In this document: one piece after another, positions 11,815 through 63,540 of the stretch | Numbering within the stretch: the stretch's first letter is position 1 | Layout: each line of letters begins with the position of its first letter | Assembly (NCBI GenBank): GCA_964551295.1 | Contig: CAZKDJ010000002.1 | Span: 1,096-65,095, forward strand | Direction of reading: 5' to 3' | DNA: 64,000 bases | Source: an uncultured Anaerolineales bacterium | Lineage (GTDB): Bacteria; Chloroflexota; Anaerolineae; B4-G1 | Made by a program: the position numbers and the translations under genes | Notes under the pieces: generated by a model | Told to the model about the DNA's origin: nothing | Database searches by the model: none | The model's input: the letters and a program-made list of their open reading frames with translations, nothing else

Positions 11815-13962
11815 ATGGGGCGCGCTGCCTTGCGGCAGCGCCCTTTATTAGAGGATTCTATGGGCAACCGGCAACGACTTGGGCGATGGGCGCTCGTGGC
11901 TCTCTTTCTGCTGGCCTTCGTGCCACGGGCCATACACCCCGTCTCCCGCCCCCTCCAGTGGTACTTTCGCTCGGCGCAGTTCTTCCAGGCCGTTCTGCAC
12001 GGCGATCTGGCGGGCACGCTTTTCTCCGAGCATCCCGGCGTGACGGTGATGTGGCTTTCGGGGGCGGCGCTGTGGGGTTGGTACGGCCTGCAGTCCCTCT
12101 TGGGCCTGAACCTGCCCCCGCCGCTGGAGACGGAGGGGTACGCCTTCGCCGACCGGGTTGCGGTGGGCGTGGTACCGCTGGCGCTGGTGGTTTCTTTGGG
12201 CATCGTCTGGGGGTGGTTCCTCCTGCGCCGCCTGTTTGGGCGGCGGGTGGCTTGGGTAGCGGCGCTCCTGTGGGCGATCGATCCCTTCTTCCTGGCGAAC
12301 TCCAAGGCGCTTCACCTGGACGCCACGCTTTCCACACTGATGACGCTCTCCGCCCTGTGGATGCTGATCTACCTGCGGGAGCGCCGCTGGCGGCAGTTGG
12401 TCCTCTCCGCCATCCTGGGCGGCCTGGCCATCTCGACCAAGATATCGGCGGTCTTTATGTTCCCCTTCTGGGGCCTCTGCCTCCTGGTGGATTGGCTTCT
12501 ATCGCTCCGCAACTCTCAATCTCCAATCTCCAATCTCTACCCCCTGATCTTGAATCTTGTGCTCTGGGCTCTCATTGCCGTCTTTGTTTTCACTGCCCTC
12601 TGGCCCGCCCTGTGGGTACGTCCAGGGGATAGCTTTGGCTGGCTGATCGACGAGGGGGTGCTTTTGCACAAGGACGACGTCCGCAACCAGCCCCTGTTCT
12701 ACCGGGGGACGCTGGCCGTGCAGGATCCCGGCGTCCGATTTTACGCGGACACGCTGCTCTTTCGCACCACGTTTCTGACACTGCCCTTCTCTTTGGTCGG
12801 CCTGCTGGCGTTGTGGCGGCGGGAGGAACGCCTGCCGCTGCTGCTGTTGGTCGGTTTTGCCCTGTTCTTTTTCGTGCAGATGTCGCTGGGAGGATGGAAG
12901 GACACGCGTTACATGCTGCCTGTGCTGCTGGCTCTCGATGTGCTGGCCGCGTGCGGCTTAGTCTGGTGGGTGGGACGCTTGCCGATAAGGGGCTGTGGGC
13001 AGATCGTCGTCATCGTGGGATTGCTGGCGGTTCAGGCCGTCGTCGTGCTCTCCCGTCATCCTTACTACGGTACCCATTACAACGCGCTGATGGGCGGCGC
13101 GCGCGCGGCGGCACGGGTCTTTCCCCTGGCCGAGTGGGGGGAGGGGTTGGATCGGGCCGGGCAGTACGTGGACGGCCAGCCCGGCGTGGAGGATTTCGTC
13201 GTCGGCACCCAGTTCCTGGCCAACGAGATGCTGGCCCAACACATCCGCGCGCCGGTCTACGAAACGGGCCAGGTGGAGGACGAGGCGGACTATTTGGTGT
13301 TCGGCGTGCAGTACACGATGCGCGGAAAAAACTATGGCCGTTGGGGCGAGGAGTGGGAGCAGACCTACAAGTTCCGCCAGCCGGAGTTCGTCGCGTCCTT
13401 CGGCGGCATTCCTTACGCCTGGGTTCATCGACCTGGCGCGGAGCCCGCTGTCCCTCACAAGCTAGATGCCGGGTTAGGGGGGGCGATTCGGCTGGTGGGC
13501 TACCGCCTGGCCCAGGAGGCGGTCTCGGCGGGAGATACGCTGGTGTTGACCCTCTATTGGCAGGCGGAGCAGCCTGTCAAAGGTGACTATACCGTTTTCG
13601 TTCACCTGCAAGGGCCGGACGGCAGCCTGATGGCGCAGCAGGATAACCCGCCCGTGCGCGGCACGCGGCCCACGAGCGGTTGGGCGCCCGGCGCGCTGGT
13701 CGAGGACCCCTACGAGGTTCAGGTACCCGCCGACGCCGCTTTCGGCCGGTATACGCTCAACGCGGGGATGTACGATCCGGCGACGGTGGAGCGATTGGAG
13801 GCGGTCGACGCTGATGGTAGGCGGTTGTCTGAGAATCGCGTCGTGCTGACCGGCGTGATGGTGCGGCCGGCGGTGCCCTGGTGGCGATGGGTGCTCTCTG
13901 GGGCGTGGCTAGTGGTCGTGGCGGCTGGTGTTTTGCAGGCTTGGTTCGGGAGGCGGGAGTGA
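11815..13962 (+). CDS. GT-C-like (GT39/ArnT-like) polytopic membrane protein, class A-short, with 1 C-terminal module and a terminal TM anchor
   Basis: Loop motif PVSRPLQWY...HPGVTVMW and IDPFFLANSKALHLDA, shared with the genes at 39218, 43024 and 56854. Module LTLYWQAEQPVKGDYTVFVHL...RPTSGW...GRYTL. Final helix WVLSGAWLVVVAAGVLQAW. Alternative start ATG 11860 with a GAGGA SD. Confidence 0.8.
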   Translation: MGRAALRQRPLLEDSMGNRQRLGRWALVALFLLAFVPRAIHPVSRPLQWYFRSAQFFQAVLHGDLAGTLFSEHPGVTVMWLSGAALWGWYGLQSLLGLNLPPPLETEGYAFADRVAVGVVPLALVVSLGIVWGWFLLRRLFGRRVAWVAALLWAIDPFFLANSKALHLDATLSTLMTLSALWMLIYLRERRWRQLVLSAILGGLAISTKISAVFMFPFWGLCLLVDWLLSLRNSQSPISNLYPLILNLVLWALIAVFVFTALWPALWVRPGDSFGWLIDEGVLLHKDDVRNQPLFYRGTLAVQDPGVRFYADTLLFRTTFLTLPFSLVGLLALWRREERLPLLLLVGFALFFFVQMSLGGWKDTRYMLPVLLALDVLAACGLVWWVGRLPIRGCGQIVVIVGLLAVQAVVVLSRHPYYGTHYNALMGGARAAARVFPLAEWGEGLDRAGQYVDGQPGVEDFVVGTQFLANEMLAQHIRAPVYETGQVEDEADYLVFGVQYTMRGKNYGRWGEEWEQTYKFRQPEFVASFGGIPYAWVHRPGAEPAVPHKLDAGLGGAIRLVGYRLAQEAVSAGDTLVLTLYWQAEQPVKGDYTVFVHLQGPDGSLMAQQDNPPVRGTRPTSGWAPGALVEDPYEVQVPADAAFGRYTLNAGMYDPATVERLEAVDADGRRLSENRVVLTGVMVRPAVPWWRWVLSGAWLVVVAAGVLQAWFGRRE
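12515..12538 (+). repeat. Heptanucleotide tandem repeat (TCTCCAA)n inside a CDS
   Basis: tctcaa tctccaa tctccaa tctc, encoding SQSPISNL. Confidence 0.7.
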
Positions 13963-16478
13963 GTCAGCAGGCAGAGTCACTGCATCGAGGACGTAGGCTC
14001 ATACCCCTGGCCGTGTTGGTCCTGTACGCCGTTGCGACCGTCGCGATGACCTGGCCGCTGGCAGCCCAGTTGAGCACCCACGCAGCCGGCAGCGGGAACG
14101 ACATGTGGATCTACCACTGGGGCAACTGGTGGACCCGCAAGGTGCTGACCGAAGGGGGTAGGCTGTATTGGACGTCGTATATGTTCTATCCCCAGGGCAT
14201 CAGCCTCACGTGGTACGCGTTTAGCTGGCTCAACACGGCCATCTGGCTGCCGCTGCAGGCCCTGATAGGCGCTCTGGCGGCCTATAACGTCGTGGTGCTG
14301 CTTTCCTACCTGATCAGCGCCTTCACGGCGTACCTGTTGGCGAGAGAGTTGACCGGCGCGTACCTTGCCGCTTTTATCGGCGGGCTGGTCTTTGCGTTCT
14401 ATCCGGCGCGCAACTCGTACCACAGTCATCTCAGTTTCTTGAGTGTACAGTGGATTCCGCTCTGCGCGCTGTTCCTGGTTCGGATCACCCGTCAAGGTCG
14501 CTTACGGGATGGCTTGGGGGCGGGGGTCTCCTTCGCGCTGTGCGGTTTGAGCGGGGAGCGCTTGCTCCTGCTCACACTGTTTTGGGCTGCCTTGTGGCTG
14601 GGCTATAGCCTCCTGTTCGAGCGGCGTCATTGGGGCCACAAAACGATCAGGACGTTACTGCTGGCTGTCGTTACGTGTGCCCTGATCGCGGGACCGCTGC
14701 TCGCACCGCTGGCCGTGGGGTTTTTTGACCCCGATACGTCGCAGGATTTGACCGCTTCGACCCCTGCTGAGAAAAGGACCGATCTGTTGGCTTATTTCAT
14801 ACCCAGCCGGTACCATCCGCTCCTGAGCCAAAAGACTGCCTTCAAGAAGCTCTACAAGAGCGTGGTGAACTTTTGGGAGCGCTCGGCTGCTGTTGGATAT
14901 GGCGCGCTGGCACTGGTTGGGTGGGCCGTGTGGAAGCGCTGGCGCGAGGCGCGGCCTTGGGTCTTTGCCGCCTTGATCTCTGCTCTGTTGGCGCTGGGAT
15001 CGACGCTCGAGTTCAACGGGCACGAGCTCATCCCACTGCCCTACAGATTGCTGGCTTTTACACCGCTCAGCACGGCGGTTCGAAACCCGGAGCGGTTCAA
15101 CATCATCTTGGCCCTGCCGATAGCGGTCCTGGTGGCCATCGGAGTTTCCGATCTGCTCGGCCGCCTGCGTGCCGGCATTGTCCCACGAGGTCTGTTAATC
15201 GTCGGTATCACCTGCCTGGTACTTTTCGAGTACCTGGTTGTGCCGTTCCCTACGACGCGGCCCGTTCAATCTGCTTTCTACGAGCAGTTGCGCGAGGAGC
15301 CGGGTGAGTTTGCCGTTGTCGATTTTCCGATTGGCTTTCACTCCCACAACAAGTGGTACGTGTACGCCCAGACCCTCCACGGCCGGCCGACGGTGGAGGG
15401 GAACCTGGCGCGAGTTCCTGCCGGCGCCCACAGTTTCATCGAGAGCGTGCCTGTTCTGAGTGCGGCGCGCGTTTCTCCGCCGCAGGAGGGGGCGTTGGAC
15501 GACGTCACCCGCCAGTTGAGTCCCCTGGCCCAGGTCGGTGTGCGCTATGTGCTGATTCACAAATACCGCGCCAGCAAGGACGAGGTCTCGCGCTGGCGGA
15601 GGTGGTTCGCCTTTGCGCCTTGTTATGAGGATGAGTATCTGCTCGTCTTTCGTACCACGCCGCGCTATGGGGAGGGTTTCGAGTTCACGACCGAGTTAGG
15701 AGATGGCATCGGGGTGATAGATACAAGCGTTTCGCCGCGTGAAGTGGGGCAGGGAGGATCGGTGGGCGTGAAGGCGGTGTGGGTCTCTCGGGACGCACCA
15801 CGCCAGGACTGGATGGTACGTCTGGCCCTGGTGGATCCGACGGGCCAGGAGGCGCAAGGTGAGGATTTCGAGCTCTTTCCGGATTGGCCGACGTCGCAGT
15901 GGGGCCCAAGCGCCGTGGTACGTGGGCAATGGACGTTGCAGGTAGATCCGTACATACCGGGCGGTACGTATTCGATGACCCTGGGCTTGGTGGATTCGGT
16001 GACGGGCGAGCGATCGGATGAATCGATCGCGTTGGGTCGGTTGAATGTGCAGGCGATTGAGCGGGTATTTGAGGCGCCCGAAGTGGAAACGGAGAGCGAA
16101 GCGGTCTTTGGACAACTGCGGCTGCTGGGGTACGATCTGCATCAGGGGAACGATCAGGTGAGGATAACGCTCCACTGGCAGGCATTGCAGCGAATGGACG
16201 AGGCCTACAAGTTCTTTGTACACCTGGTCGATCCGGTCAGTGGGCGGTTGGTCGCCCAGGCCGACGTGATGCCCTACGATTGGACCTATCCGACTTTTTG
16301 GTGGGAGGCAGGGGAGTTCGTCTCCGATGAGATTACGTTGTCGTTGGAAGGCGTTCCACCAGGCGTGTATAACCTGTACGTGGGCGTCTACCGTGCTGAT
16401 GGTGAGCGATTGCCGGTTAGTTTGGGAGGAGATCGGTACGAGCTTGAGGATGAGATAACGGTCCCGAAAGGACTTTGA
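13959..16478 (+). CDS. GT-C-like polytopic membrane protein, class B, with 2 C-terminal modules
   Basis: N-terminus VAMTWPLAAQLSTHAAGSGNDMWIYHWGNWW (class-B signature). GTG 13959 overlaps the upstream TGA (GTGA). Modules contain VWVSRDAPRQDWMVRLALVD...WPTSQW and ITLHWQALQRMDEAYKFFVHLVD...YPTFWWEAGE. Confidence 0.8.
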   Translation: MSQQAESLHRGRRLIPLAVLVLYAVATVAMTWPLAAQLSTHAAGSGNDMWIYHWGNWWTRKVLTEGGRLYWTSYMFYPQGISLTWYAFSWLNTAIWLPLQALIGALAAYNVVVLLSYLISAFTAYLLARELTGAYLAAFIGGLVFAFYPARNSYHSHLSFLSVQWIPLCALFLVRITRQGRLRDGLGAGVSFALCGLSGERLLLLTLFWAALWLGYSLLFERRHWGHKTIRTLLLAVVTCALIAGPLLAPLAVGFFDPDTSQDLTASTPAEKRTDLLAYFIPSRYHPLLSQKTAFKKLYKSVVNFWERSAAVGYGALALVGWAVWKRWREARPWVFAALISALLALGSTLEFNGHELIPLPYRLLAFTPLSTAVRNPERFNIILALPIAVLVAIGVSDLLGRLRAGIVPRGLLIVGITCLVLFEYLVVPFPTTRPVQSAFYEQLREEPGEFAVVDFPIGFHSHNKWYVYAQTLHGRPTVEGNLARVPAGAHSFIESVPVLSAARVSPPQEGALDDVTRQLSPLAQVGVRYVLIHKYRASKDEVSRWRRWFAFAPCYEDEYLLVFRTTPRYGEGFEFTTELGDGIGVIDTSVSPREVGQGGSVGVKAVWVSRDAPRQDWMVRLALVDPTGQEAQGEDFELFPDWPTSQWGPSAVVRGQWTLQVDPYIPGGTYSMTLGLVDSVTGERSDESIALGRLNVQAIERVFEAPEVETESEAVFGQLRLLGYDLHQGNDQVRITLHWQALQRMDEAYKFFVHLVDPVSGRLVAQADVMPYDWTYPTFWWEAGEFVSDEITLSLEGVPPGVYNLYVGVYRADGERLPVSLGGDRYELEDEITVPKGL

Positions 16479-16570
16479 ATGGCGGGCTGCCTCTGGCTGA
16501 CGACCGGTACTCGCAAGCTAGAATTTGCAAATTCTTTGAAGTCGAATACAATAGCAAACTTGAGCGCGAA

Positions 16571-16672
16571 GTATCATCTCAATAATCCGGGGGGCGGGGG
16601 GGGGGGGGGGGGGGGGGGGCCCCCCCCCCCCCCCCCCCACCCCCCATCTTCCCCTATTTATTGAGAAGATAC
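16571..16672. mobile_element. MITE copy 1 (102 bp) with an 8-bp target-site duplication AGCGCGAA
   Basis: TIRs GTATCATCTCAATAA (16571-) and the reverse complement GTATCTTCTCAATAA (-16672). Identical AGCGCGAA at 16563-16570 and 16673-16680. The core is a G/C homopolymer palindrome. Confidence 0.75.
16589..16645. repeat. Homopolymer palindrome G6-C-G24 / C19-A-C6
   Basis: Direct count: G 16589-16594, C 16595, G 16596-16619, C 16620-16638, A 16639, C 16640-16645. Confidence 0.9.
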
Positions 16673-16690
16673 AGCGCGAATTTAATCTGA

Positions 16691-18667
16691 ATGGAGGAAA
16701 ACATGTTGCCAGTAATAACATCTTTCAATGCAAGAAGGCTGGGTGTTTTGTTTTTAACTATGTGCATAGCGGGCTTTGGGCTGACGACGTTCAGTCGGGC
16801 TTCTGCGCCAGAGCGCGCAGCCGCGCCGGCAGGGACGACGATTGGATCCGATATCACGGTCGACACGACCTGGACACTGGCCGGGAGTCCTTACTACGTG
16901 ACAAAGAAAGAGATTCAGATCAACCCTGGGGTCACCCTGACGATAGATCCGGGTGTACAAGTCCTCCTCAGAGATCAGGGCAAGATACACATTGCCGGTG
17001 GTGCATCCTTGATCGCCAGAGGGACCCCCAGTCAACACATTGCTTTCACGCAGATTGACGCTTACAGTCGCTGGAAGACGATCAACCACTACGCTGGATC
17101 GACCTCCTATTATCGTTACGTTGATTTCACCATAGGCGGTAAGGATATGGCGATGTTGCACTACGAGGGGTCGGGAACGCACACGCTGAATAACTGTACG
17201 CTCGATCATTCTTCGAAACACGGTATCTATGCCCATGGCAGTGGATTGAATCTGAGAATCGCCGGGGTCAGTATTACCCACTTTGGGCTTTACGCGCTGG
17301 CAGTTGACGAAGGTGCTGCGGTCCACATGACCGGATCCAACGTCTTTCATACGGGGCCGAAAAACGGAGTGAGTCTGAACGGTGCAACGTCGGCGCTTAC
17401 GATCACGCATTCGAACGTCTTCGTTCCCAACTTGGGCATCTACAACCAAGTCCCCGGCAGTTTCTGCGTTAACGCCCAGTACAATTGGTGGAATGACGCC
17501 AGTGGGCCCGCCGGCGGTGGCGGAGGAGTCTGTGGGGTGGGAGGTAATGGCGGCAGTGGTACGATTCTGAGTACCGGCGTGGACTGGCGCAACTATCTTG
17601 CCTCCCCTGCTCCCATCGTCGGCATCGAGACCACCCCCGTTCCATCCTTTACCGTCTCTCCCGATCCTAGCGTTGCGCAGCCTCCGGGTACCACTTACAC
17701 TTTCAACGCCTCCATCAGCACCGACGCTGAGGATTATCTCTCTTCCCTCGATTTCTGCTGGGATTGGGAGGATGACGGAGGCGGGTGCGACGCCACGACC
17801 GTCGTCGCGACCCACAGCTATGCCTCCGGTGGTCTACACACAGCGCGCCTGACCGTCACGGATACCGATGGCATGGTCGGCACGCTGACGCAGGATATCC
17901 AGGCCGGGTATGTGCCCACCGCGACCTTCACACTCACTAAAACGTCCTGGGCACAGATCGAGGTCGATCCTTCCGCCTCGAGTGACGTCGAGGATGCCCC
18001 GGGGGATCTGCTGGTCCGCTGGGACTGGGAGGGGGATGGCGTGTGGGATACAGGCGCGTACAGCGTCACCGATATTCTCACCCACGCATACGATCACATT
18101 GGACGTTACTGGCCCACTCTCAGTGTAGAGGATACAGATGGACTGGTCGACACATCGAGCATGGCGGTGGACATCATTCCGCCAGCGGCGACGAAAGTCA
18201 TCAGCGGCAGTGGAGGCACGCTGACCTCGGTGGATGGCACCGTTTGGGTCAATGTGTACACCGATACGGTGGCAGGCACCGTCATTAGCGATGGGTTGGT
18301 GATCACCCATACGCCCTGGATCACTGTGCCCATCGGCTGTAGCGCCGTGCCGGGAGATTTCACTTACCAGGGGTTCACACTGGCCGCCGAGTCGCAAGCC
18401 GATGGACAACCCATTGAACAGATCAGCGGCACTTATACGATCACGATTGCGTATGATCTCGATTACTATCGCGACGTGCTTGGCCTGCTGGTGGCCGAGA
18501 ATGTGCTCAAACTGTACCGTTGGTCGGATGCCGATGGCGAGTGGGTGCTGGTGTCGTTCACGGTCGACTCCGGGCAGCTCGTGGCAACGACGAACAGCTT
18601 TGGCGACTTTGCTTTGGTTCTGGAGCCGCATAAGGTTTACTTGCCGCTAGTCTGCAGGTCATACTAG
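16691..18667 (+). CDS. Secreted/anchored right-handed beta-helix protein with two PKD domains
   Basis: N-terminal hydrophobic signal/anchor (LGVLFLTMCIAGFGLTTF). Parallel beta-helix-like repeats (TIGSDITVDTTWTLAGSPYYV...INPGVTLTIDPGVQV...). Two PKD units (FNASISTDAEDY...HSYASGGLHTARLTVTDTDG and VDPSASSDVEDAPGDLLVRWDWEGDG...HAYDHIGRYWPTLSVEDTDG). Alternative start ATG 16703 after GGAGGA. Confidence 0.8.
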   Translation: MEENMLPVITSFNARRLGVLFLTMCIAGFGLTTFSRASAPERAAAPAGTTIGSDITVDTTWTLAGSPYYVTKKEIQINPGVTLTIDPGVQVLLRDQGKIHIAGGASLIARGTPSQHIAFTQIDAYSRWKTINHYAGSTSYYRYVDFTIGGKDMAMLHYEGSGTHTLNNCTLDHSSKHGIYAHGSGLNLRIAGVSITHFGLYALAVDEGAAVHMTGSNVFHTGPKNGVSLNGATSALTITHSNVFVPNLGIYNQVPGSFCVNAQYNWWNDASGPAGGGGGVCGVGGNGGSGTILSTGVDWRNYLASPAPIVGIETTPVPSFTVSPDPSVAQPPGTTYTFNASISTDAEDYLSSLDFCWDWEDDGGGCDATTVVATHSYASGGLHTARLTVTDTDGMVGTLTQDIQAGYVPTATFTLTKTSWAQIEVDPSASSDVEDAPGDLLVRWDWEGDGVWDTGAYSVTDILTHAYDHIGRYWPTLSVEDTDGLVDTSSMAVDIIPPAATKVISGSGGTLTSVDGTVWVNVYTDTVAGTVISDGLVITHTPWITVPIGCSAVPGDFTYQGFTLAAESQADGQPIEQISGTYTITIAYDLDYYRDVLGLLVAENVLKLYRWSDADGEWVLVSFTVDSGQLVATTNSFGDFALVLEPHKVYLPLVCRSY

Positions 18668-18683
18668 TTTTGATCGCTGTTTC

Positions 18684-18731
18684 AAAGGTGCCAGGCGCTG
18701 CTCGGGCGAGCGCTTGGCACCTTTATTTCTT
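18684..18731 (+). terminator. Rho-independent terminator
   Basis: 15-bp stem AAAGGTGCCAGGCGC / GCGCTTGGCACCTTT (one G-U pair), 11-nt loop, followed by ATTTCTT. Confidence 0.65.
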
Positions 18732-18741
18732 GATCATGGCC

Positions 18742-18770
18742 TTGCCTCAAACGGTTACTTGCATTACAAT
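18742..18770 (+). promoter_or_regulatory. Array promoter P2: TTGCCT-17-TACAAT
   Basis: TTGCCT at 18742-18747, 17-nt spacer, TACAAT at 18765-18770. ATG 18779 follows 8 nt later (leaderless-type spacing). Confidence 0.6.
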
Positions 18771-18778
18771 GCCTGCCG

Positions 18779-28240: not shown

Positions 28241-28241
28241 G

Positions 28242-41263: not shown

Positions 41264-41300
41264 GGCTATGATTGTGCGGAAAGCTAGTGGAGCATTCGGG

Positions 41301-42989: not shown

Positions 42990-43023
42990 AAGATCATTTT
43001 AGCGAGGAAGGATATATCGAAAA

Positions 43024-45123: not shown

Positions 45124-45187
45124 CCGGTTGAGGAGACGACCGGTGACGGAGGGCATAGGGCGTAATCGGGGAATGAGAGGAGACAGC

Positions 45188-47683: not shown

Positions 47684-47725
47684 GCCGATTCCCCAATCCG
47701 TGATTTGGTGTATTGGATGAATTGC

Positions 47726-53400: not shown

Positions 53401-53698
53401 GGAGATGGAGGAGGGCTACAAGGTGTTCGTGCACCTGTACGACGAGGAGGGGAACATCCTGGCACAGCGGGACCGCATGCCCGGGCTGGGCGCGCGGCCG
53501 ACCAGCGGGTGGCAGGCGGGCGAGGTAGTCGCCGATCGCCTCACCGTGCCGGTCGACTCCGAGGTGCCGGTGGGCAGATACCGCCTGGCCGTGGGGCTGT
53601 ACGACGGGGGAACGGGAGATCGTTTGCCGGTCTATGGCCCGGATGGAGAGCAATTGCAGGAGGGCCGGGTCTTTATTGGCCATGTGGGGGTGGAATGA
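50426..53698 (+). CDS. GT-C-like membrane protein, class A-long, with 3 C-terminal modules; paralogue of 35919..39218
   Basis: ATGA overlap with the upstream gene. VASDELRWTCRSIAF...HPGVVTTW. Modules contain ILEWEAVQPLQRDYSLFLHLYD, LRLYWQALAEMAQAYRLQLAL and VKLYWQARREMEEGYKVFVHLYD. Confidence 0.82.
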   Translation: MSQALRLEVAAVLLILAASLVLRLLDLDAFVASDELRWTCRSIAFRQALRQRDWPGTFRVGHPGVVTTWLGALFIPRNDVRALETCRATGDAKNPETAGDTPAEQTERLRELGRLLFAGRVGIALATWLCIGVLYLLTRLIWGPKVALVGLILVALNPFYLAHSRFIHLDAVLAGLMVVSLLNFLVSRQSARPGRWRLAFVALSGGVGGLACLQKSPALFLALFVGLVLVADVLRNGVSRRRILEASRDLALWGLAAGVVYVALWPAMWIDPLGTVGRVLDTAIGYAEEGHEPGNFFLGRPVHDPGWAFYPTAVLFRTTPLALLGLIGGLIGMARVGKGERRLGLALLLLYSLLFGIFMGLGKKMFDRYLLPIFPPLEIVAAAGLVWMGEALWARLPGRLRPLLLTGLPVYLIVLIVRLVLVLPHHPHYLTYYNPLLGGAPRARQVLLMGWGEGYGEAASYLNAQPGAQDLQATVPGFPVFAALFRGETRDMRWYSVWESDYVLAYVSQVQRERDKVSTTEYYDDPQVQPEHVVTLHGVDYVWIYRNEHHLKPLRYLEEHGRPAQGECLLVNGGSLIAENYGGGLPVYAFRAQWVPSQKAYVYWSAEQVAALVDDMSGDCRRVWYVRYPEHEEEAYLDVLRTRAVQLERATFPHVEIGLYQFVEQLVEPRQFDLQFESLRLRSYALTNPPPAWGRDGGVILEWEAVQPLQRDYSLFLHLYDGHGQRIAQTDSLLIDRRLRPTSQWEPGTPNRVLYHVSIPPGIPPGRYELELGVYLLETGERLDLSDTGESSFRLALEVGVPDVQPDASDLAIPHPAARDVLPELRLLGYDLERDAVLAGEGVTLRLYWQALAEMAQAYRLQLALQGADGQVHWQAESDLVHTDHPTTEWQPGELLHDLYPLPTDAITATGEVTIALNLLDAQGGPLLDRPVELAQLWVQSLEPSFDVPPEIDLTHQVNFGDSIIFLGYELDSESVRPGESFSVKLYWQARREMEEGYKVFVHLYDEEGNILAQRDRMPGLGARPTSGWQAGEVVADRLTVPVDSEVPVGRYRLAVGLYDGGTGDRLPVYGPDGEQLQEGRVFIGHVGVE

Positions 53699-53715
53699 CG
53701 AGAACGGCACACCTG

Positions 53716-53747: not shown

Positions 53748-53786
53748 GAATATCTTTGGGGCAGCCGATTGGACAAAGGAGCAAAC

Positions 53787-56700: not shown

Positions 56701-56825
56701 ATCATCTGCGTGTGGGTATGTACGGTTGGCCGTCCCTTGAACGGCTGCCCGCTTTTCGTCCCGATGGGAGCCGCTGGCCCGACGATCAGGTCCTTTTGGG
56801 CGATGTTCGCGTTGTCTTGCCCTAA
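53787..56825 (+). CDS. Double GT-C fusion, class D: DUF2029/GT87-like N-terminal half plus GT39/ArnT-like second half plus 1 C-terminal module
   Basis: GTG 53787 after an AAAGGAG SD. First half has LLYRDVFTTTPPLINFLLIP. Second half has YLWTNDEGLYMQRAALANAGYPLYAEIYLNKPPLLVWIL (classic DE...KPPL ArnT/PMT_2 loop). Module VMLLWRCETPPSADYHVFVHLVD...RPTSQW. Confidence 0.78.
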   Translation: MTGNTYVWRILGVFVALFAVYLAVALVVLEPVGYYGTAEKSGFTDPWIERVETILSGGLLYRDVFTTTPPLINFLLIPPVLVSGLFDHQYLWATVSFMAYYSIFNLFAAYALLYTPDDRKEGYRSALIFLLNPLTFGNSLLRRQDESILVFFLALAVLFFAHRRPAMTGVAMGLGSLVKLTGAPVIPVAFLQTRDWRYLVIPALVFALVFAPFLIAAGRSAVFWDVTQRDTEHPFQFAGISLGHLWSRAHDGELLVGLTTYSAMFVVGVLVVLAIIAWRPLGLLEDLALLLTTIFLLTAKLHCGYFSLLVLALAPLVRKYRVGDLYFLSGLVILLADMHKSPLDDYATAFNLMVVGFLLLVAAMVLIRRSRRADESGSGEVIFRLPGRGWMRAAYWVVWGVVIALYLAWPLAHLNDYLWTNDEGLYMQRAALANAGYPLYAEIYLNKPPLLVWILQLAFQLAGPTVATARFTVLCLTLVGFVATAIVARQLWSRWAGLAAAGVLLALPEVPARANVVMADLPALALALVAMAAALCFRRSGRRDWMVLSGATFAGALLIHPVLVYMALPLAMILFWPADKSWCRIAPLDVLIFVGTAAVAGLLVLIAVDRRAFFRWVFQFNYGAGADLLEPQKNWERITGYLKDIWPLVGLSALSAAALSLSPEKRRPLLIAVVWWLATVAILMASSPLQKQYLLFLAFPLVVIAGGGLIAVGKWVIGHVQGGRFLRGWRAVLALLMLISAVLLAVDRWEETKPYFALAAEWSADHLAARAFLEQQVSPGGFVATDDPFLAFAAGRLVPPSLTELSTKQIKVGNLMANDVKGTVLWYEAQVVLFSTNRLERLPGLEDWVASVAAERRDFGELRAYRLELPPSVSLSDPVRLGSEIEPRGYALSGNELHPGEMLAVMLLWRCETPPSADYHVFVHLVDGEGRVWGQHDGPPAMGSRPTSQWMAGQRVFDVHPIEVEQIPPGRYHLRVGMYGWPSLERLPAFRPDGSRWPDDQVLLGDVRVVLP

Positions 56826-56845: not shown

Positions 56846-56853
56846 CTCTGCCA

Positions 56854-58986
56854 ATGAAACGGCTCAAGTCCTTCGTTTCTCACATCTTTCCAATTGCGCT
56901 CTTCGTCGTCGCCTTCCTCCCCCGCGCCATCCGACCGGTCTCCCGGCCCCTGGTCTGGTATCTGCGCTCTGCCCACTTCATCGACGCGGTGCTGGCGGGC
57001 GATTGGGCGAACACGGTCTACTCGGAGCATCCAGGCGTGGCGCTGATGTGGCCAGCGAGCCTAGGCCTCAAGCTCTACTGGGCGCTCTTCGACATCACTC
57101 CGGCGGCCCAAAGCGTGCCGCCCGACTTTGAGCCGATCAAGTTCTTTGGCCCCGTGCCCGTGAACGAGATCGCCGCCGCGCTGCTGCCGTTGGCGCTGCT
57201 GATCTCGCTGGGCGTCGTGGGAGCCTATTTCTTGCTGCGCCGCCTCTTTGGCGCGCGAGTCGCCGCGGTCGCCGCCCTGCTCCTGGCCCTCGATCCCTAC
57301 TACCTGGCCCAATCCAAGATCCTCCATCTGGATGCGTGGCTGGCGACGTTGATGCTGCTCTCGGCGCTGGTATTGCTCCTGTACTGCCGTGAGCGCCGCG
57401 CGCGCTGGCTAATCCTTTCGGCTGCGTTAGGCGGGCTGGCCCTCCTGACCAAACCTACTGCCTTGTTTCTAGTTCCCTTTGGTGGCCTCGTTCTCCTGGT
57501 CAACGCGGCACGCAGCACGCAGCCGAGTTGGACTCTGCGCAATCTCCAATCTCTAATCTCCAGTCTCTTTGTCTGGCTCCTCATCGCCGCCCTCATCTAT
57601 TTCGCCCTCTGGCCCGCCATGTGGGTGGACCCGGTGCGGGCACTGAAGGCAATTGAGGGGGGACTGTCTCGCCACGTGAGCAGCGCCCACGACTCGCCGA
57701 CCTTTTTCCTAGAGCAGGTCACGTACGAGGATCCCGGGCCGGTGTTCTACCCTGTTTCGATGCTCTTTCGCACCGGCGAGGTGGCGCTGCTCTTTTCGCT
57801 CGTCGCGGGGGTTTTGGGCGTGGTCTATCTACTCCGCCGCCGCCGGCTTTCGCAAGCCGGGGTTGATTATCTGCTTCTCCTGGCTTACATCATCTTCTTC
57901 CTGGCTCAGATGAGCCTGGGGGCGAAAAAGATGCCGCGCTACGTCCTGCCGGCCGTCTTGGCGCTGGACGTGCTGGCGGCAGCGGGAATCGTCGTCTGGG
58001 CGCGCGCGCTGGCAGGCAGGTGGCGCGCCTTGACACTGGTCTTGATGGCGCTCCCTGTGCTGGTTCAGGCTGCGCTGGTTTTGCCGCGCCATCCCTATTA
58101 CGGCACGGCCGCCAACTGGCTGGCCGGCGGCCCTCAGGCAGCCGCGCGCGCCATCCTCACCGGCGAGGAGGGCGAAGGACTGGCAGAGCTGGCCGCGACG
58201 CTCAACGCCCGCTCCGATGCGGAGGAGTTAACTGTCGCAGCGCAGCTCAAGCACGTGTTCAACCAGTGTTTTCGCGGCGCTACGTTGGATATTCACGAGC
58301 GCCCGGCCGACTATTTTGTCTTTCACCGCAACTATACCGTGCGCGATTACAAGATCGAGCAGTGGGATGCATTGTGGGAGCGGCACGCTGCTCGCACGCC
58401 GGAGCGGCAGATCGACTTTGATGGCGTGCCCTACGCCTGGCTCTATGCGGCGGTGCCCGCCGAGGCGGAACCCGAGCACGCACTGGAGGTTCACCTGGGC
58501 GACCGGCGGCGCTTCCTGGGACACGACCTACGCTCGACGGAAGTGGCCCCCGGCGACCGCGTTCCGCTCGTGCTGTATTGGCAGGCGGTGGAAGCGAGTG
58601 AGGATGACCTGAGCATCTTCCTTCACTTGATGGGACCAAGCGGTGAGTTGATCTGGCAGGACGACGGGGCGGCTGCCCACGGCACGCGCCCCACGTGGAG
58701 CTGGGAGATCGGTGAGGTGGTCGTCGATCCTCATACGTTGATGCTGCCACGGGATCTGCCCGAAGGGGACTATCGGCTGGTGACCGGCCTCTACAACTGG
58801 CAGACGGGCGAACGGCTGCCTGCGACCACGCCAGGGGGCGAGGGGCTCGCCGACGATCAGATCGCCGTGGCCACGCTCGTCGTCCGGCGGCCGCGCGTCC
58901 ATCCGGCAGCTTGGGTCGCATGGGGGCTTGGCGGGTTGGTGCTGCTCTCTGCATTGGTGATGCCGGTTCGGAGGTCCGATGGCTGA
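56854..58986 (+). CDS. GT-C-like membrane protein, class A-short, with 1 C-terminal module and a terminal TM anchor; paralogue of 11815..13962
   Basis: MKRLKSFVSHIFPIALFVVAFLPRAIRPVSRPLVWY...HPGVALMW. Module LVLYWQAVEASEDDLSIFLHLMG...RPTWSW. Final helix WVAWGLGGLVLLSALVM. The ORF-track start 56551 overlaps the previous gene. Confidence 0.82.
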   Translation: MKRLKSFVSHIFPIALFVVAFLPRAIRPVSRPLVWYLRSAHFIDAVLAGDWANTVYSEHPGVALMWPASLGLKLYWALFDITPAAQSVPPDFEPIKFFGPVPVNEIAAALLPLALLISLGVVGAYFLLRRLFGARVAAVAALLLALDPYYLAQSKILHLDAWLATLMLLSALVLLLYCRERRARWLILSAALGGLALLTKPTALFLVPFGGLVLLVNAARSTQPSWTLRNLQSLISSLFVWLLIAALIYFALWPAMWVDPVRALKAIEGGLSRHVSSAHDSPTFFLEQVTYEDPGPVFYPVSMLFRTGEVALLFSLVAGVLGVVYLLRRRRLSQAGVDYLLLLAYIIFFLAQMSLGAKKMPRYVLPAVLALDVLAAAGIVVWARALAGRWRALTLVLMALPVLVQAALVLPRHPYYGTAANWLAGGPQAAARAILTGEEGEGLAELAATLNARSDAEELTVAAQLKHVFNQCFRGATLDIHERPADYFVFHRNYTVRDYKIEQWDALWERHAARTPERQIDFDGVPYAWLYAAVPAEAEPEHALEVHLGDRRRFLGHDLRSTEVAPGDRVPLVLYWQAVEASEDDLSIFLHLMGPSGELIWQDDGAAAHGTRPTWSWEIGEVVVDPHTLMLPRDLPEGDYRLVTGLYNWQTGERLPATTPGGEGLADDQIAVATLVVRRPRVHPAAWVAWGLGGLVLLSALVMPVRRSDG
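57543..57570 (+). repeat. Degenerate heptanucleotide repeat (TCTCCAA-like x4) inside a CDS
   Basis: tctccaa tctctaa tctccag tctcttt, at the loop position homologous to 12515-12538. Confidence 0.6.
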
Positions 58987-61228
58987 GCGAATGGCCCAGT
59001 GGATACTGGCGGTGATCCTCGCGCTCTTTGTAGGCTTGGGGGTGGCGTATGCCTTTACCACACCCACGCTGGAGGCCCCCGACGAGATTCATCACTATGA
59101 TTACATCCGCAGCCTGGTCAACACCGGCAGTCCACCGGGGGCAAAAGAGGGCCAGAAGAGCTTTAGCAATCACGCGCCGCTTTACTATGTGATAGGCGCG
59201 CTGGGTTCTGCCTGGGTGGGTGAGGACGACCTGGATACCTGGCGTACGCGCTACAACCCGTACTTTGGTTATCGCTTCGGCGACATGGGGCGGGATAACA
59301 AGAACATCTACTTTCATCCCGACGAGGATCGTTTCGGCGCCAGCGATACCTGGCTGGGCGTCCGAGTTGTGCGCGTAATGTCCGTTCTGATGAGTGCGGC
59401 TACCATCTGGGTTATCTATCGCGTCGGGCGGGAGGTGTTCCCCGATAGGCCCGAGATGGCGGTCGGAGCGGCCGGGTTAGCGGCTTTTATCCCCGAGTTC
59501 CTTTTCATCTCGGGCGCGGTCAACGATGACAATGGCGCGGCCCTCTTTGGCGCGCTGTCTCTGTGGACGATGGTGCGCATCGTGCGCCGGGGGTTTAGCC
59601 CGCGCCGCTGCGTTGGGCTGGGGGTGGCCTTGGGGTTGGGATGGCTCTCCAAGCTGACGACGGCAGCGTTGATACCGGCGGCGGGCCTGGTGATGGCGCT
59701 GGTCGCGTGGCGCAATCGATCCTGGCGAGATCTGCTTATTTGGGGTTTGGTGGTCTTTGGGGTGGCGGCGCTGCTCATCGCGCCCTGGGCTGCCCGCCAG
59801 TATGTGCTTCACGGCGACCCTATCGGCCTGGCACAGGAAATGGAGGGGTTTGGAGAGCCGGAACGTGCGCCCTCCCTGGCCGATCTGTGGCCCGACCTCT
59901 ACTGGCTGCGCACCTCCTTCTGGGGCCGTTTGGGCGCCAACCAAGTTCCTCTCGCTGGCTGGATATACATCGTGCTGGACGCGGTGACCCTGTTGGCCCT
60001 TGCCGGTCTCGTGCGGTCCCTAATCCGCTGCCACAGCCTCCTCCAATCTCCAATCTCCAATCTCCATTCCCCATTTGCCGAGCGCTTCCAGCAGTTCGCT
60101 ATCCTTGCGGCAGCTTTTCTCCTTACCTTCGGCCCCATGGTCGCGCGGCGCTTCCTGCGTCCCATGCCCAACTTTGGACGTTATTTGTTCCCGGTGCTGC
60201 CGGCTATGGCGTTGCTGCTGTTCACCGGCCTGGCGGCCTGGCTGCCCCGCCGCCGTCACGCGCTGCTGGCCTTGGGTGTCACAGTGGCGATGCTGGTGCT
60301 GGGGATCGCTGCGCTGGTCTTTTTCCTGGCGCCCGCCTATGCCCGCCCGCCTATCTATGACGCCGCTTCTGCGCCGGAGCCCAAATATCGGCTGGACTGG
60401 GTCTACCTGGAGGATGACTGTCCTATCGCTCGCCTGCTCGGTTACGATCTCGGCAAGAAGCGGGTCGAGCCGGGGGGGACGCTGCGAGTGGTGCTGTACT
60501 GGGAGGTGCTGGGCGAGACCGAGACGAATTACACGCTCTTTGCGCAGTTGTTCGGGCGCCAGGCGGCGACGGTGGGCCAGCGGGATACCCACACCGGGCT
60601 GGGTCATTATCCAACCTCCTTCTGGCAGACCGGGCAGGTGATCGCCGGCGAGGTGTTTATCCCCGTTGCCTCAGACGCCCTTGGTCCCACCAAGCTGCGG
60701 CTCGACGTGGGCCTTTACCGGCGCGGCGGTGGAGAACGCTTGGCGGTCGTGGACGCTGCAGGCGACCCGGTGGGCGCGGCGACGATCGGCTGGCTGAAGT
60801 TGAACGCTGTGAAAGAACTCCCCCCGCCCGAGGTCGCCACCGATTATCGCTTTGGAGAGTGCATTGCTCTCGTCGGCTATGATTTGGAAAGAGATGCCGA
60901 GGGAGCGCAACTCATTCTCCATTGGGCCTCCCTGGGGTCGGTGGATCAGGACTATACCGTGTTCGTGCACCTGGTCGGTCCCGACGGCGAGCTGGCTGCC
61001 CAGGCGGACGGCCCACCCACGGGCGGCGATTATCCCACGTCGATGTGGGAGTTCGGCGAGATCATCTTTGACGAGCGGCTCGTCGCGACGCAGAACCTGC
61101 CCGCGGGTACCTATCACCTGCGCCTGGGGATGTACCTGCTGGAGACCGGCGCGCGGTTGCCCGCCCTGGATGCCAGCGGCGAGCGTCTGCCGGATGACGT
61201 GGTGGAGCTGACGGAGGTGGAGCTGTGA
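58979..61228 (+). CDS. GT39-like GT-C membrane protein, class E (PDExxH first loop), with 2 C-terminal modules
   Basis: TPTLEAPDEIHHYDYIRSL...HAPLYYV. Modules contain VVLYWEVLGETETNYTLFAQLF and LILHWASLGSVDQDYTVFVHLVG...YPTSMWEFGE. 8-nt overlap with the upstream gene. Confidence 0.82.
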   Translation: MAERMAQWILAVILALFVGLGVAYAFTTPTLEAPDEIHHYDYIRSLVNTGSPPGAKEGQKSFSNHAPLYYVIGALGSAWVGEDDLDTWRTRYNPYFGYRFGDMGRDNKNIYFHPDEDRFGASDTWLGVRVVRVMSVLMSAATIWVIYRVGREVFPDRPEMAVGAAGLAAFIPEFLFISGAVNDDNGAALFGALSLWTMVRIVRRGFSPRRCVGLGVALGLGWLSKLTTAALIPAAGLVMALVAWRNRSWRDLLIWGLVVFGVAALLIAPWAARQYVLHGDPIGLAQEMEGFGEPERAPSLADLWPDLYWLRTSFWGRLGANQVPLAGWIYIVLDAVTLLALAGLVRSLIRCHSLLQSPISNLHSPFAERFQQFAILAAAFLLTFGPMVARRFLRPMPNFGRYLFPVLPAMALLLFTGLAAWLPRRRHALLALGVTVAMLVLGIAALVFFLAPAYARPPIYDAASAPEPKYRLDWVYLEDDCPIARLLGYDLGKKRVEPGGTLRVVLYWEVLGETETNYTLFAQLFGRQAATVGQRDTHTGLGHYPTSFWQTGQVIAGEVFIPVASDALGPTKLRLDVGLYRRGGGERLAVVDAAGDPVGAATIGWLKLNAVKELPPPEVATDYRFGECIALVGYDLERDAEGAQLILHWASLGSVDQDYTVFVHLVGPDGELAAQADGPPTGGDYPTSMWEFGEIIFDERLVATQNLPAGTYHLRLGMYLLETGARLPALDASGERLPDDVVELTEVEL
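60040..60067 (+). repeat. Heptanucleotide tandem repeat (TCTCCAA)n, 4 units, inside a CDS
   Basis: cctccaa tctccaa tctccaa tctccat, encoding LLQSPISNLHS. Absent from the sister gene at the aligned position. Confidence 0.7.
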
Positions 61229-63540
61229 TGAGCGAGCGGGTGGCGCGGTGGACGCTGTCCCTCATCGTGGGAAGTTACCTGATTCTGGGGCTGGCCTACA
61301 GCCTGGTCAATCCCGTTTTCGAAAGTCCCGACGAGGCGCTGAACTATGCCAACATCCGCTTCTTTGTCGAGCAGCGCAGCCTACCGGTGCTGGAGCCGGA
61401 CGAGGTGAGCAAGGCCCATCACCCGCCGCTCTACTACGCGCTGGGGGCGTTCGTTACCTTCTGGGTGCCAGACGACAATTTTGATGCCATCGTCGCGCGG
61501 GAGAATCCCTTCTGGGCATACAAGTTGGAACCCGGAGTGGATAACAAAAGCCTGTACCTACACGATCCAGAGTTGGAGGGCTTTCGGGATGCGGCCCTGG
61601 GTGTGCTGCTGGTGCGCTGGTTATCGCTGCTGATGGGGGCGGGGACGGTCCTGTGCGTGTACGGTACGGCGCGGGAGTTGTTCCCCCGCCGGATGGGACT
61701 GGCGGTAGGCGCGGCGGCGCTGGTGGCCTTTAACCCCATGTTTCTGTTCATCAACGCATCCGTTCACGACGATCCGCTGGCGAACCTGGTGGCGGCGGGT
61801 GTGCTTTACGTGACCACGAGAATCCTCGTGCGCGGCGTGACGGTACGGCGGGGGGCGGTCCTGGGTCTGCTGGTCGGATTGGCCATCCTGACCAAGTTGA
61901 CCTGCCTGCTGGTGCTGCCCACGGTTGGACTGGCCCTGCTGTACGGCTCCCTGGTTGGACATGGTGCCGTAGCCGCGATTTCCGATCTCGCGCGGTTGGG
62001 AAACCGCGCCTACGGCGTGCGCGATGGGTGGCGGCAGCTTCTACAAGTCGGAGCCACCGTCGCCCTGGTGGCGCTCCTGGTCGGCGGGTGGTGGTTCGTG
62101 CGCAACCAGATTCTCTACGGCGACCCAACCAGTATGAGTCGCCAGATGGAGGCGTGGGAGGACGAACGGCCGGGCGGCCCGGATATCGTGGCGGCGGTAC
62201 GCGAACTGGGTTTTTTGCACGACTCGGCCTGGGGCGCCTTTGGCTACGGGCAAATCCCGCTGCCGGGCTGGACCTATGGGCTGGCGCGGCTGCTGGGGTT
62301 GGTGGCTTTGGGCGGGCTGGTTCTCTTTTGGATTCGCCGCCACTCTGGACGGGTTCCCTGGGAGCGGCCGTCGCTCGCGCTGCTGATCGTGTTCAGCGGC
62401 CCGCTGGTGGTCTTGGCGACCATTTTTGTCCGCATGGTCTTCATCGACACGGCCAACTTTGGCCGCTACCTGTTCGTCTCGTTGGCGTTTCTGTCGCCGC
62501 TCTATGTGCTGGGGTTGAGCGAGTGGCTGCGGCCACGCGCCCGCCGCTGGTTGCCGATTGGGCTGGCGCTCGCCACGCTGGCCCTGGCGCTCTTTGCCCT
62601 CTTTGGCGTCTTGCGGCCCGCCTACGCGTCCCTGGCGATGCGCTCTGTCGAAGAGATTCAGGCCCGCACCCAACCTGCCGATTTGCGCTTTGGCGATTCG
62701 ATTCGCCTGGTGGGTTACGCCATCGACCGCGGCTGCGTTCTGCCCGGTGGTGAGGTGACCATCACCCTGTGCTGGCAGGCGCTCGCGCCGACGGAGGAGG
62801 ACTATGTCTACTTTGTCCACATCCTCGGGCCGGAGGAGAGCAAGGCGGGAGCGCGCGATACCCACCCCGGCCTAGGCCGCTACCCCACGGGGCGCTGGTC
62901 GCCTGGCGATGCCTTTTGCGACGACGTGCGTGTCACGGTGGGGAAGGATGCCCCTGCCCCGGCAGTCTATGACGTTGCGGTGGGGTGGTACTTGTACGAG
63001 GACGCCCGGTTGAAAGAGCACCTGCCCGCCTACGATGCGAGCGGCGCACCACTGGAGCTGGTGACGCTGGGCAAGGTCAAGGTCCGGCCTGAGGCGTATG
63101 CCACCGTCGAGGTGCCCCATCGGCTCGACGCCAACCTGGGCGGACGGGTCATGTTGCTCGGCTACGACATAGACCGGCGGGCGGTCGCGCCTGGTGGAGA
63201 GATCAACGTCACCCTCTACTGGGCGGCCCAGGTCCCCGTGCCCGTCGACTACAGCGTCTTCCTGCACCTCGCCGCTCCCGAGGGGGCGCCGTATGCCCAG
63301 GCCGATGGTCATCCCCAGCACGGCGCTTACCCAACCTCCTTCTTGGACGTGGGCGAGGTCGTGGCCGATCCCCGTACCGTCGTCGTCCCCGCTGATCTAC
63401 CGCCGGGCGAGTATCCGCTGGTGGCGGGGATGTATTTTCTAGAGACGGGGGAGCGTCTGTCGTGGCTAGCGCCTGATGGAAGCGCTCGGGGCGATGCCGT
63501 GCCGCTGCTGACGCTCGCGGTTAGCGTCGACGCCCCTTGA
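61225..63540 (+). CDS. GT39-like GT-C membrane protein, class E, with 2 C-terminal modules
   Basis: GTGATG junction (start GTG 61225 or ATG 61228). NPVFESPDEALNYANIRFF...HHPPLYYA. Modules contain ITLCWQALAPTEEDYVYFVHILG and VTLYWAAQVPVPVDYSVFLHLAA...YPTSFLDVGE. Confidence 0.82.
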   Translation: MMSERVARWTLSLIVGSYLILGLAYSLVNPVFESPDEALNYANIRFFVEQRSLPVLEPDEVSKAHHPPLYYALGAFVTFWVPDDNFDAIVARENPFWAYKLEPGVDNKSLYLHDPELEGFRDAALGVLLVRWLSLLMGAGTVLCVYGTARELFPRRMGLAVGAAALVAFNPMFLFINASVHDDPLANLVAAGVLYVTTRILVRGVTVRRGAVLGLLVGLAILTKLTCLLVLPTVGLALLYGSLVGHGAVAAISDLARLGNRAYGVRDGWRQLLQVGATVALVALLVGGWWFVRNQILYGDPTSMSRQMEAWEDERPGGPDIVAAVRELGFLHDSAWGAFGYGQIPLPGWTYGLARLLGLVALGGLVLFWIRRHSGRVPWERPSLALLIVFSGPLVVLATIFVRMVFIDTANFGRYLFVSLAFLSPLYVLGLSEWLRPRARRWLPIGLALATLALALFALFGVLRPAYASLAMRSVEEIQARTQPADLRFGDSIRLVGYAIDRGCVLPGGEVTITLCWQALAPTEEDYVYFVHILGPEESKAGARDTHPGLGRYPTGRWSPGDAFCDDVRVTVGKDAPAPAVYDVAVGWYLYEDARLKEHLPAYDASGAPLELVTLGKVKVRPEAYATVEVPHRLDANLGGRVMLLGYDIDRRAVAPGGEINVTLYWAAQVPVPVDYSVFLHLAAPEGAPYAQADGHPQHGAYPTSFLDVGEVVADPRTVVVPADLPPGEYPLVAGMYFLETGERLSWLAPDGSARGDAVPLLTLAVSVDAP

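Follow-up and report, generated by a model that had tools for sequence, protein, structure and literature searches.

What could a bacterium do with some twenty GT-C-like membrane proteins encoded side by side? The question is raised by a 64,000-nt stretch of DNA from an uncultured Anaerolineales bacterium of the Chloroflexota (assembly GCA_964551295.1, contig CAZKDJ010000002.1, positions 1,096 to 65,095; hereafter the window, in whose own numbering all further positions are given). An initial annotation had described the interval from 11815 to 63540 as encoding 20 polytopic membrane proteins and one exception, and this description is borne out by the open reading frame (ORF) listing and a hydropathy scan: 21 co-directional ORFs on the + strand, g01 to g21, all of them intact, fill the interval, and 20 of the 21 products have 4-16 hydrophobic segments within the N-terminal ~450 amino acids (aa), the exception being g03. 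The array, as we read it, probably encodes a multi-enzyme set of extracytoplasmic GT-C glycosyltransferases that depend on lipid-linked sugars and act on a shared envelope acceptor.

GT-C membrane domains and a shared C-terminal domain

All-vs-all BLASTP reproduces the six membrane-domain classes that had been distinguished by eye: A-short (g01, g12, g14, and g19; 36-56% identity within the class), A-long (g11 and g17; 54%), B (g02, g04-g10, g13, and g15; 24-59%, with g06 as the outlier), E (g20 and g21; 36%), and two classes of one gene each, C (g16) and D (g18). Membrane domains of different classes are mutually undetectable by BLAST, and the identities measured between paralogs by BLASTP, ~24-59%, replace an earlier estimate of 30-70%. 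The motifs by which the classes had been described are present: class B has WxNWW following an Asp, class A HPGV..MW, and class E PDE, and g16 has F-Q-G-D-E.

The assignment of these domains to GT-C, also made at the outset, is upheld by two kinds of evidence: hidden Markov model matches for classes A, C, D, and E, on which the call for these four rests, and a structural model for class B. Ten genes (g01, g11, g12, g14, and g16-g21) match Pfam PMT_2, PMT, or GT87 above the curated cut-offs. In g18, GT87 (PF09594) scores 41.7 bits against a cut-off of 25 over aa 120-344 of the long ORF and is followed by PMT_2 (PF13231). Where the PMT (PF02366) profile is matched, the match covers part of it only, positions ~80-245. 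The ArnT family (NCBIfam PRK13279/NF009784) is not reached, the best score being 25.8 bits for g20 against a cut-off of 567.

No class B gene exceeds a Pfam gathering cut-off, and the sub-threshold matches are to the GT-C-clan models PTPS_related, DUF2079, and DUF6044. Among 55 class B family members scanned, each Pfam model matches at most 8, with weak PMT_2 matches in 5 of the 55; a precomputed label, PF19830 (DUF6311), is attached to some relatives in the databases. The AlphaFold model of the class B protein g09 has a predicted local distance difference test score (pLDDT) of 91 and a predicted TM-score (pTM) of 0.80. Foldseek aligns it in the PDB with AglB, STT3, and PglB at E values of 1.5e-10 to 2e-6, with ArnT at TM-scores, by target, of 0.48-0.53, with AftA at 0.49, and also with EmbA/B and DPY19, a C-mannosyltransferase. 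As modeled, class B is a GT-C-fold family outside the reach of current Pfam models.

A conserved acidic residue in the first external loop is a hallmark of GT-C enzymes. In class B, D39 is invariant in an alignment of 55 sequences, within the motif G-x-x-x-D-x-W-x-x-x-W-N-N-W-W, and D265 and R370 are invariant too. In class E, E33 and D36 of g21 are 100% conserved and E37 97% conserved among 92 homologs (30-79% identity). The corresponding loop of g16 reads F-Q-G-D-E; in the second module of g18, N-D-E follows a transmembrane (TM) helix.

What the classes have in common lies elsewhere. BLAST coordinates place the sequence shared by all of them in the last ~140 aa, not in the membrane core; a candidate GT-C core of ~130 aa was rejected because the same coordinates put that stretch at the extreme C-terminus. 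A profile built from terminal copies of this C-domain finds 31 copies in 18 proteins: two in most class B proteins and in class E, three in A-long, one in A-short, C, D, and g06, and none in g07 and g13. The initial claim that every protein has a soluble C-terminal part is therefore correct for 18 of them and fails for g07 and g13. The reference copy (g01 aa ~544-685; 13444-13869, + strand) is an Ig-like beta-sandwich, and the 18 terminal copies are 29-66% identical in pairwise comparison, with 14 invariant columns (G12, G19, L37, W39, F52, H54, Q65, D67, G101, Y103, G108, Y110, R117, and L118) and the consensus LLGYDL..TLHWQA..DY.VFVHL.D..G.L.AQ.D..P..G.YPT..W.AGEVV.D...P.G.Y.L.VGMYD..TGERLP. 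Identity of the C-domain between classes is 29-45%, although the membrane domains give no mutual BLAST match, which points to a constraint acting on all of them, for example the same ligand or partner. Recent gene conversion among C-domains was considered and rejected since their identities track the membrane-domain classes; each C-domain thus appears to have co-evolved with its partner.

The C-domain has no Pfam or NCBIfam match in the window proteins at E <= 0.01. Its AlphaFold model (pLDDT 97) is an Ig-like beta-sandwich whose nearest PDB folds are the carbohydrate-binding domain of Wzt, CARDB, RbmA, and Ig-like accessory domains of GH2 and GH3 enzymes (E 1e-5 to 1e-3, TM-scores 0.45-0.54); Wzt is a component of an O-antigen transporter and RbmA a biofilm matrix protein. 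The best of these matches is the Wzt C-terminal domain (6o14, 8dky, and 2r5o; E 1e-5 to 1e-4, TM-scores 0.45-0.52), a cytoplasmic domain attached to an ABC ATPase that resembles the C-domain at the level of a generic Ig-like sandwich. Two relatives have weak Pfam Wzt_C matches, and none of the window proteins has one at E <= 0.01. Against PDB sequences the C-domain profile yields only an insignificant match to RbmA (E = 0.09).

Searched against 1.84 billion cluster representatives, the same profile returns 31,056 matches at E <= 1e-3 and 21,959 at E <= 1e-10. A C-domain search of a clustered protein database gave largely short fragments with sparse taxonomy. Proteins elsewhere that carry the domain are typically 900-1100 aa long and end in 2-4 copies in tandem. 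In the ten top matches sampled, the accompanying N-termini are PMT_2, PTPS_related, or TMEM260-like GT-C domains, and the named examples all come from Chloroflexota (Anaerolineae and Caldilineales), where they are annotated as 'glycosyltransferase family 39 protein', 'DUF2723 domain-containing protein', or 'hypothetical protein'.

Extent, conservation, and turnover of the array

The array had been taken to end at 63540, but it continues. An independent contig, L006 (Ga0315550_1000688; related contigs are referred to here by such L numbers), matches window positions 61756-64000 with 0 mismatches in 2245 nt and runs 9.5 kb past the window, through a ZIP transporter gene and then three genes for GT-C proteins with C-domains (937, 765, and 743 aa). 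The overlap implies that the genome has at least 23 such genes in ~62 kb. The ZIP-family metal transporter gene follows g21 both in L006 (1935-10187 region) and in L087 (23043 onward), and in L006 it interrupts the array ahead of the three further GT-C genes.

Array gene order recurs well beyond this genome. In L001 and L087, which come from two other samples and are 82-92% identical at the amino acid level, the order of g04 to g12 and of g16 to g21 plus the ZIP gene is kept. More distant relatives at 50-76% identity (L002-L004, L005, L007, and L088) have one-to-one orthologs in partly conserved order, those kept being g01, g03, g06-g11, g16, g19, g20, and g21 (the one-to-one mapping covered L001, L087, L002, L005, L007, and L088). 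That distinct orthologs persist across these relatives implies that the paralogs are far older than the lineages concerned and that each has been individually retained. The ratio of nonsynonymous to synonymous substitution (dN/dS) against L001 is 0.15-0.29 for eight ortholog pairs, g05-g12; g07, with a ratio of 0.15, has short orthologs conserved at 562-565 aa. Judged by these sequence comparisons, the array genes are functional and individually retained under purifying selection.

The scale of the locus had been called exceptional, and it is the largest array among the loci examined. Tandem arrays as such are typical of the group: among the loci fetched, each of at most ~22 kb, 12 hold co-directional runs of 4-8 C-domain genes, and such shorter runs are common in Chloroflexota metagenome contigs. 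A scan of genome contigs with g09 returned one locus, L005, from an Anaerolineales metagenome-assembled genome.

Retention is accompanied by local turnover. Window and L001/L087 are ~89% identical in nucleotide sequence on either side of 41236-47714 (g13-g15), where L001 and L087 have a single g14-like gene at 71% nucleotide identity and lack g13 and g15; no other part departs from colinearity with these relatives. The G+C content at third codon positions (GC3) is 0.59-0.67 in g13-g15 compared with ~0.8 in the neighboring genes, within a range of 0.59-0.85 for the array. These features suggest cassette replacement or horizontal import of the g13-g15 block. Low GC3 is also seen in g05 (0.63) and g03 (0.67). 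Within the window, a two-gene unit comprising the 3' part of an A-short gene and a class B gene is duplicated (40472-42938 and 44332-46819, 68.6% nucleotide identity); the copies correspond to g12-g13 and g14-g15, and the C-terminal domains kept in g15 are absent from g13.

A second case concerns g18, whose conserved fusion of a GT87 with a PMT_2 domain is shared by 10 clusters and persists in relatives as distant as 64% identity; beyond that the two halves are separate genes. In L087, an 88% relative, two tandem g18-like double-GT-C genes at 10001-16326 (1040 and 1062 aa) take the place of the single gene of the window, and the second copy is colinear over its 3' part with the 3' end of g18 and with g19 in the window. 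This arrangement indicates that g18 copy number changed by recombination between paralogs.

Proposed function and competing explanations

On the extracytoplasmic face, polyprenyl-phosphate carriers supply the sugars that GT-C enzymes transfer. We propose that the array enzymes would take their sugars from polyprenyl-phosphate donors made in the cytoplasm and then flipped across the membrane, and would transfer them on the outer face of the cytoplasmic membrane by means of the first-loop acidic residue(s). The one to three C-domains would project outside the cell, a placement suggested by a cytoplasmic, positively charged N-terminus and by homology to AglB/PglB, and could serve as acceptor-binding modules, akin to carbohydrate-binding modules (CBMs), that hold each enzyme on the shared acceptor. 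The likeliest acceptor would be a cell-envelope polysaccharide, with surface glycoproteins also possible. Classes and paralogs would supply differing specificities for donor, linkage, or acceptor position, so that the array enzymes jointly build or decorate a complex envelope glycoconjugate, and the product would differ between strains as genes are gained and lost. There is a plausible target for such a set, given that the Chloroflexota envelope is multilayered and chemically undefined and that its architecture has long been debated (PMC7332563).

Several characterized systems bear on this proposal. The Emb/Aft enzymes (EmbA/B/C, AftA, and AftD) share the order of a GT-C domain followed by one or more extracytoplasmic beta-sandwich CBMs, the placement of the C-domain being predicted in our case, and their paralogs work one after another on a single envelope polymer, with a polyprenyl-phosphate sugar as donor. 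The genes of embCAB are likewise tandem and co-directional, and the class B model aligns with AftA (0.49) and EmbB. The analogy to embCAB drawn in the initial annotation therefore stands for the architecture and not for the family: no Emb/Aft Pfam or NCBIfam match is found in the window proteins at E <= 0.01, nor any Emb/Aft sequence match, the C-domain belongs to a different, uncatalogued family, and the embCAB trio of an Actinomycetota lineage compares with at least 23 genes in a member of the Chloroflexota. In three-component systems (Gtr; ArnC/ArnT; GT136 ORF12), the GT-C enzyme uses a polyprenyl-monophosphate sugar supplied by a GT2 and flipped outward (PMC11127046); these have one GT-C gene per locus, whereas here there are many and the window has neither GT2 nor flippase. 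The Ig-like C-terminal CBMs of EmbC, AftD, and GT136 ORF12 bind the acceptor polymer, and that of GT136 binds O-polysaccharide yet is dispensable for catalysis (PMC11127046), a dispensability that fits the conservation of g07 and g13 without a C-domain.

Related loci hold plausible partners. The array of L088, a 53-57% relative, includes at 9043-9990 a gene for a 315-aa GT2 with two C-terminal TM helices, which along its whole length matches the model NF007986 for undecaprenyl-phosphate 4-deoxy-4-formamido-L-arabinose transferase (ArnC; E 1.4e-57, short of the equivalog cut-off) and which also matches PgfS, AglJ, and dolichyl-phosphate hexose transferases. Overall it is ArnC/GtrB-like, and GT2 enzymes of this kind usually make the donor for their GT-C partners; it is a candidate donor synthase. 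In L005, the GT-C genes have among them a flippase-like gene (TIGR00374) and one for a type I phosphodiesterase. Distant class E homologs (34-36% identity) adjoin genes for GT4 (17 loci), GT2 (12 loci), PGM/PMM, NDP-sugar dehydratase, and Wzy_C, which is a polysaccharide-type context. Potential protein acceptors are also encoded nearby. Orthologs of g03 (40-54% identity) recur inside related arrays, including a g03-like beta-helix/PKD protein at 12036-14027 of L088, and the L088 array is abutted on the opposite strand by a gene for a 4315-aa PKD/Big/TSP3 surface protein (16052-21917), with a 297-aa PKD protein encoded close by; the g03-like protein and the 4315-aa protein are candidate protein acceptors.

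Three other explanations have to be weighed. One is that the array arose through faulty assembly or binning, or consists of decaying duplicates that serve no common function; this could be entertained because the source is a metagenome-assembled contig and GC3 varies along the array, yet the view is effectively refuted. Self-comparison finds no repeat above 74% nucleotide identity, so the array is not a collapsed or duplicated assembly, as had been argued from the divergence of the paralogs; its gene order is recovered in at least five independent metagenome contigs from different samples (L001, L087, L002-L004, and L088); the overlapping contig L006 agrees with it perfectly; and the ORFs are uniformly intact, with dN/dS values characteristic of the constraint described above. 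It is also improbable that class B enzymes transfer lipid-linked oligosaccharides en bloc, in the manner of AglB/PglB or of O-antigen ligases or polymerases, rather than single sugars. AglB, STT3, and PglB (GT66) are indeed the top Foldseek matches of the class B model, which, like AglB, has a large periplasmic alpha/beta domain and beta-sandwiches after the last TM helix, but the resemblance does not extend to sequence: the oligosaccharyltransferase motif (WWDYG; searched as WWD, WWD[YWF]G, and WW[DE][YWF]G) occurs in 0 of the 21 array proteins, Pfam STT3 matches neither the window proteins nor any of the 55 class B family members, and no PDB sequence is matched. Furthermore, the TM-scores of ArnT and AftA equal or exceed those of the oligosaccharyltransferases.

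The strongest competitor, though still a doubtful one in our estimation, is that the array encodes protein glycosyltransferases of the O-mannosyl (PMT/TMEM260-like) type, which would decorate Ig-like or PKD-rich surface proteins such as g03 and giant adhesin-like proteins, with the C-domain recognizing folded protein domains. Class A exceeds the cut-off for Pfam PMT, classes A, C, D, and E that for PMT or PMT_2, relatives are named 'glycosyltransferase family 39 protein' by NCBI, and the C-domain is present on TMEM260-like proteins too; TMEM260 itself is described as a domain-specific protein O-mannosyltransferase (PMC10214176). A g03-type protein is moreover a conserved array member, and the PKD and PKD/Big proteins adjoin the array of L088. 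On the other side, the best folds for the C-domain are carbohydrate-binding or glycosidase accessory modules, distant class E homologs sit in polysaccharide-type clusters, 23 different protein glycosyltransferases would be unprecedented, and g03 could equally be a glycan-processing beta-helix enzyme. The array proteins also depart from PMT in having no MIR domain at E <= 0.01, in ending in Ig-like domains, which are not a PMT feature, in matching the PMT profile partially, and in the lack of an invariant loop-1 acid in class A.

The proposal of an enzyme set acting on a shared envelope acceptor must itself accommodate several findings that weigh against it. Neither the window nor the 9.5 kb downstream contains a gene for a polyprenyl-phosphate sugar synthase, a flippase, or nucleotide-sugar synthesis, and the donor pathway is postulated solely from more distant relatives. 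The first-loop acid, which had been claimed for all classes, is found in B and E and in the motifs of g16 and g18, but class A has none that is strictly conserved: D51 is 85% conserved in 20 sequences, in which the invariant loop residues are W36, R39, F43, T55, H60, P61, and W67, and D156, in the loop that follows, reaches at least 95%. Searches of PDB sequences with classes A, B, and E were empty, and these families have no characterized member. The fold similarity of the C-domain is moderate and typical of generic Ig-like sandwiches, so carbohydrate binding is offered as a proposal, not a result. Finally, g03 and the L088 PKD/Big protein fit a protein acceptor about equally well, and PMT- and TMEM260-like relatives glycosylate proteins.

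The GT-C superfamily, the general architecture of a GT-C domain followed by beta-sandwiches, and the likely chemistry are already known, and the proteins are loosely annotated as GT39/ArnT-like. New are the size of the array and the degree to which it is conserved, a GT-C family with no working Pfam model, a widespread uncatalogued C-domain that spans GT-C families, a conserved double-GT-C fusion, and strain-level cassette turnover; literature searches turned up none of these points, nor any paper on GT-C arrays or the C-domain in Chloroflexota. The phylum, and Anaerolineae especially, is among the most abundant bacteria of sediments, soils, and wastewater sludge. With over 60 kb in one conserved block and at least 23 GT-C genes kept by purifying selection, the genome invests heavily in predicted extracytoplasmic glycosylation, and the block marks where to seek the enzymes that make the Chloroflexota envelope. 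Class B now comes with a confident structural model and the candidate catalytic residues D39, D265, and R370, and the C-domain is a candidate acceptor-binding module that accompanies several GT-C families in the top matches sampled; together they could serve to annotate proteins now called 'hypothetical' or given loose names, which number in the tens of thousands. More speculatively, and with considerably less confidence than we place in the enzyme set as such, Anaerolineae may build a major undescribed envelope heteropolymer almost wholly outside the cytoplasm, with over 20 GT-C enzymes from at least six families working as an assembly line, each held on the product or scaffold by an Ig-like docking domain, with a fast-evolving cassette diversifying the surface between strains. 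If so, this glycan factory would exceed the mycobacterial arabinan system and represent a new organizational principle for GT-C enzymes, built around a C-domain apparently centered on Chloroflexota.

Gene layout and surroundings

The array genes are closely packed, with neighbors mostly overlapping by 1-8 nt or spaced by at most 212 nt, in a window of ~60% G+C. Some of the longest ORFs begin ahead of their true starts, and likely starts were set by ortholog comparison and the presence of start codons: 13959 for g02 (GTG, overlapping the g01 stop codon), 23901 for g06 (TTG, from the L001 ortholog), 26552 for g07 (GTG), 28242 for g08 (ATG), 41268 for g13 (ATG), 53787 for g18, and 56854 for g19, the last two of which are the coordinates of the initial annotation and fall on start codons. 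All coordinates that follow refer to the + strand, and each ORF with a C-domain is given with its terminal copy after a semicolon.

The A-short genes, with PMT_2/PMT and a single C-domain, are g01 (11815-13962; 13444-13869), g12 (39218-41263; 40832-41251), g14 (43024-45123; 44692-45111; GC3 0.61), and g19 (56854-58986; 58465-58887), and the A-long genes, also PMT_2/PMT and with three C-domains, are g11 (35919-39218; 38787-39215) and g17 (50426-53698; 53270-53695). Class B genes with two C-domains are g02 (13881-16478; 16077-16475), g04 (18779-21289; 20876-21286), g05 (21286-23784; 23371-23781), in which the sub-threshold matches to PTPS_related, DUF2079, and DUF6044 recur, g08 (28173-30788; 30375-30785), the modeled g09 (30785-33271; 32867-33268), g10 (33268-35814; 35401-35811), and g15 (45128-47683; 47264-47677), which is 59% identical to g13. 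The divergent g06 (23781-26555; 26130-26552) is 24-30% identical to other class B proteins and has one C-domain, and g07 (26462-28240) and g13 (41133-42989; GC3 0.59) consist of the membrane domain only. In class C, g16 (47859-50429; 49986-50399) combines PMT_2 and one C-domain with an N-terminal extension of extra TM helices, its F-Q-G-D-E loop lying at aa 156-160; in class D, the 1012-aa g18 product (53787-56825; 56394-56816) has a GT87 module, then a PMT_2 module, and one C-domain. The class E genes g20 (58979-61228; 60821-61225), which has the P-D-E motif in its first loop, and g21 (61225-63540; 63106-63528) encode PMT_2 proteins with two C-domains. The sole non-GT-C gene, g03 (16691-18667), encodes a secreted or anchored protein with Beta_helix and PKD domains in Pfam and, by hydropathy, a hydrophobic N-terminal signal or anchor only; its PDB sequence search was empty.

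In two products alone, those of g01 (13870-13962) and g19 (58888-58986), the C-domain is followed by an extra hydrophobic helix and a basic tail, which would anchor the C-terminus back into the membrane; no sortase or exosortase motif was recognized in either tail. An Rfam scan of the window gave no matches, terminators are not enriched in it (20 found, 19.9 expected), and promoter-like sites in some intergenic gaps are consensus matches only.

Upstream, the array is preceded by genes for VWA, PP2C, and WD40 proteins, an IS200-type transposase, a CBS-glutamate dehydrogenase, and a HicA toxin. The HicA gene (11529-11768, +; PF07927, E 2e-12) lies directly upstream of g01 and is overlapped by an ORF of 75 aa (11302-11529, +) that is HicB-like by eye, with no significant Pfam match to confirm it. 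The IS200-like Y1 transposase gene (8262-8792, +; PF01797, E 7e-24) is located ~3 kb upstream, between the WD40 and CBS-glutamate dehydrogenase genes. Farther away, at 3610-8165 (+), three co-directional genes encode the VWA protein, the PP2C phosphatase, and a 970-aa WD40 beta-propeller with CarboxypepD_reg, a group that looks like a signaling-type cluster unrelated to the array.

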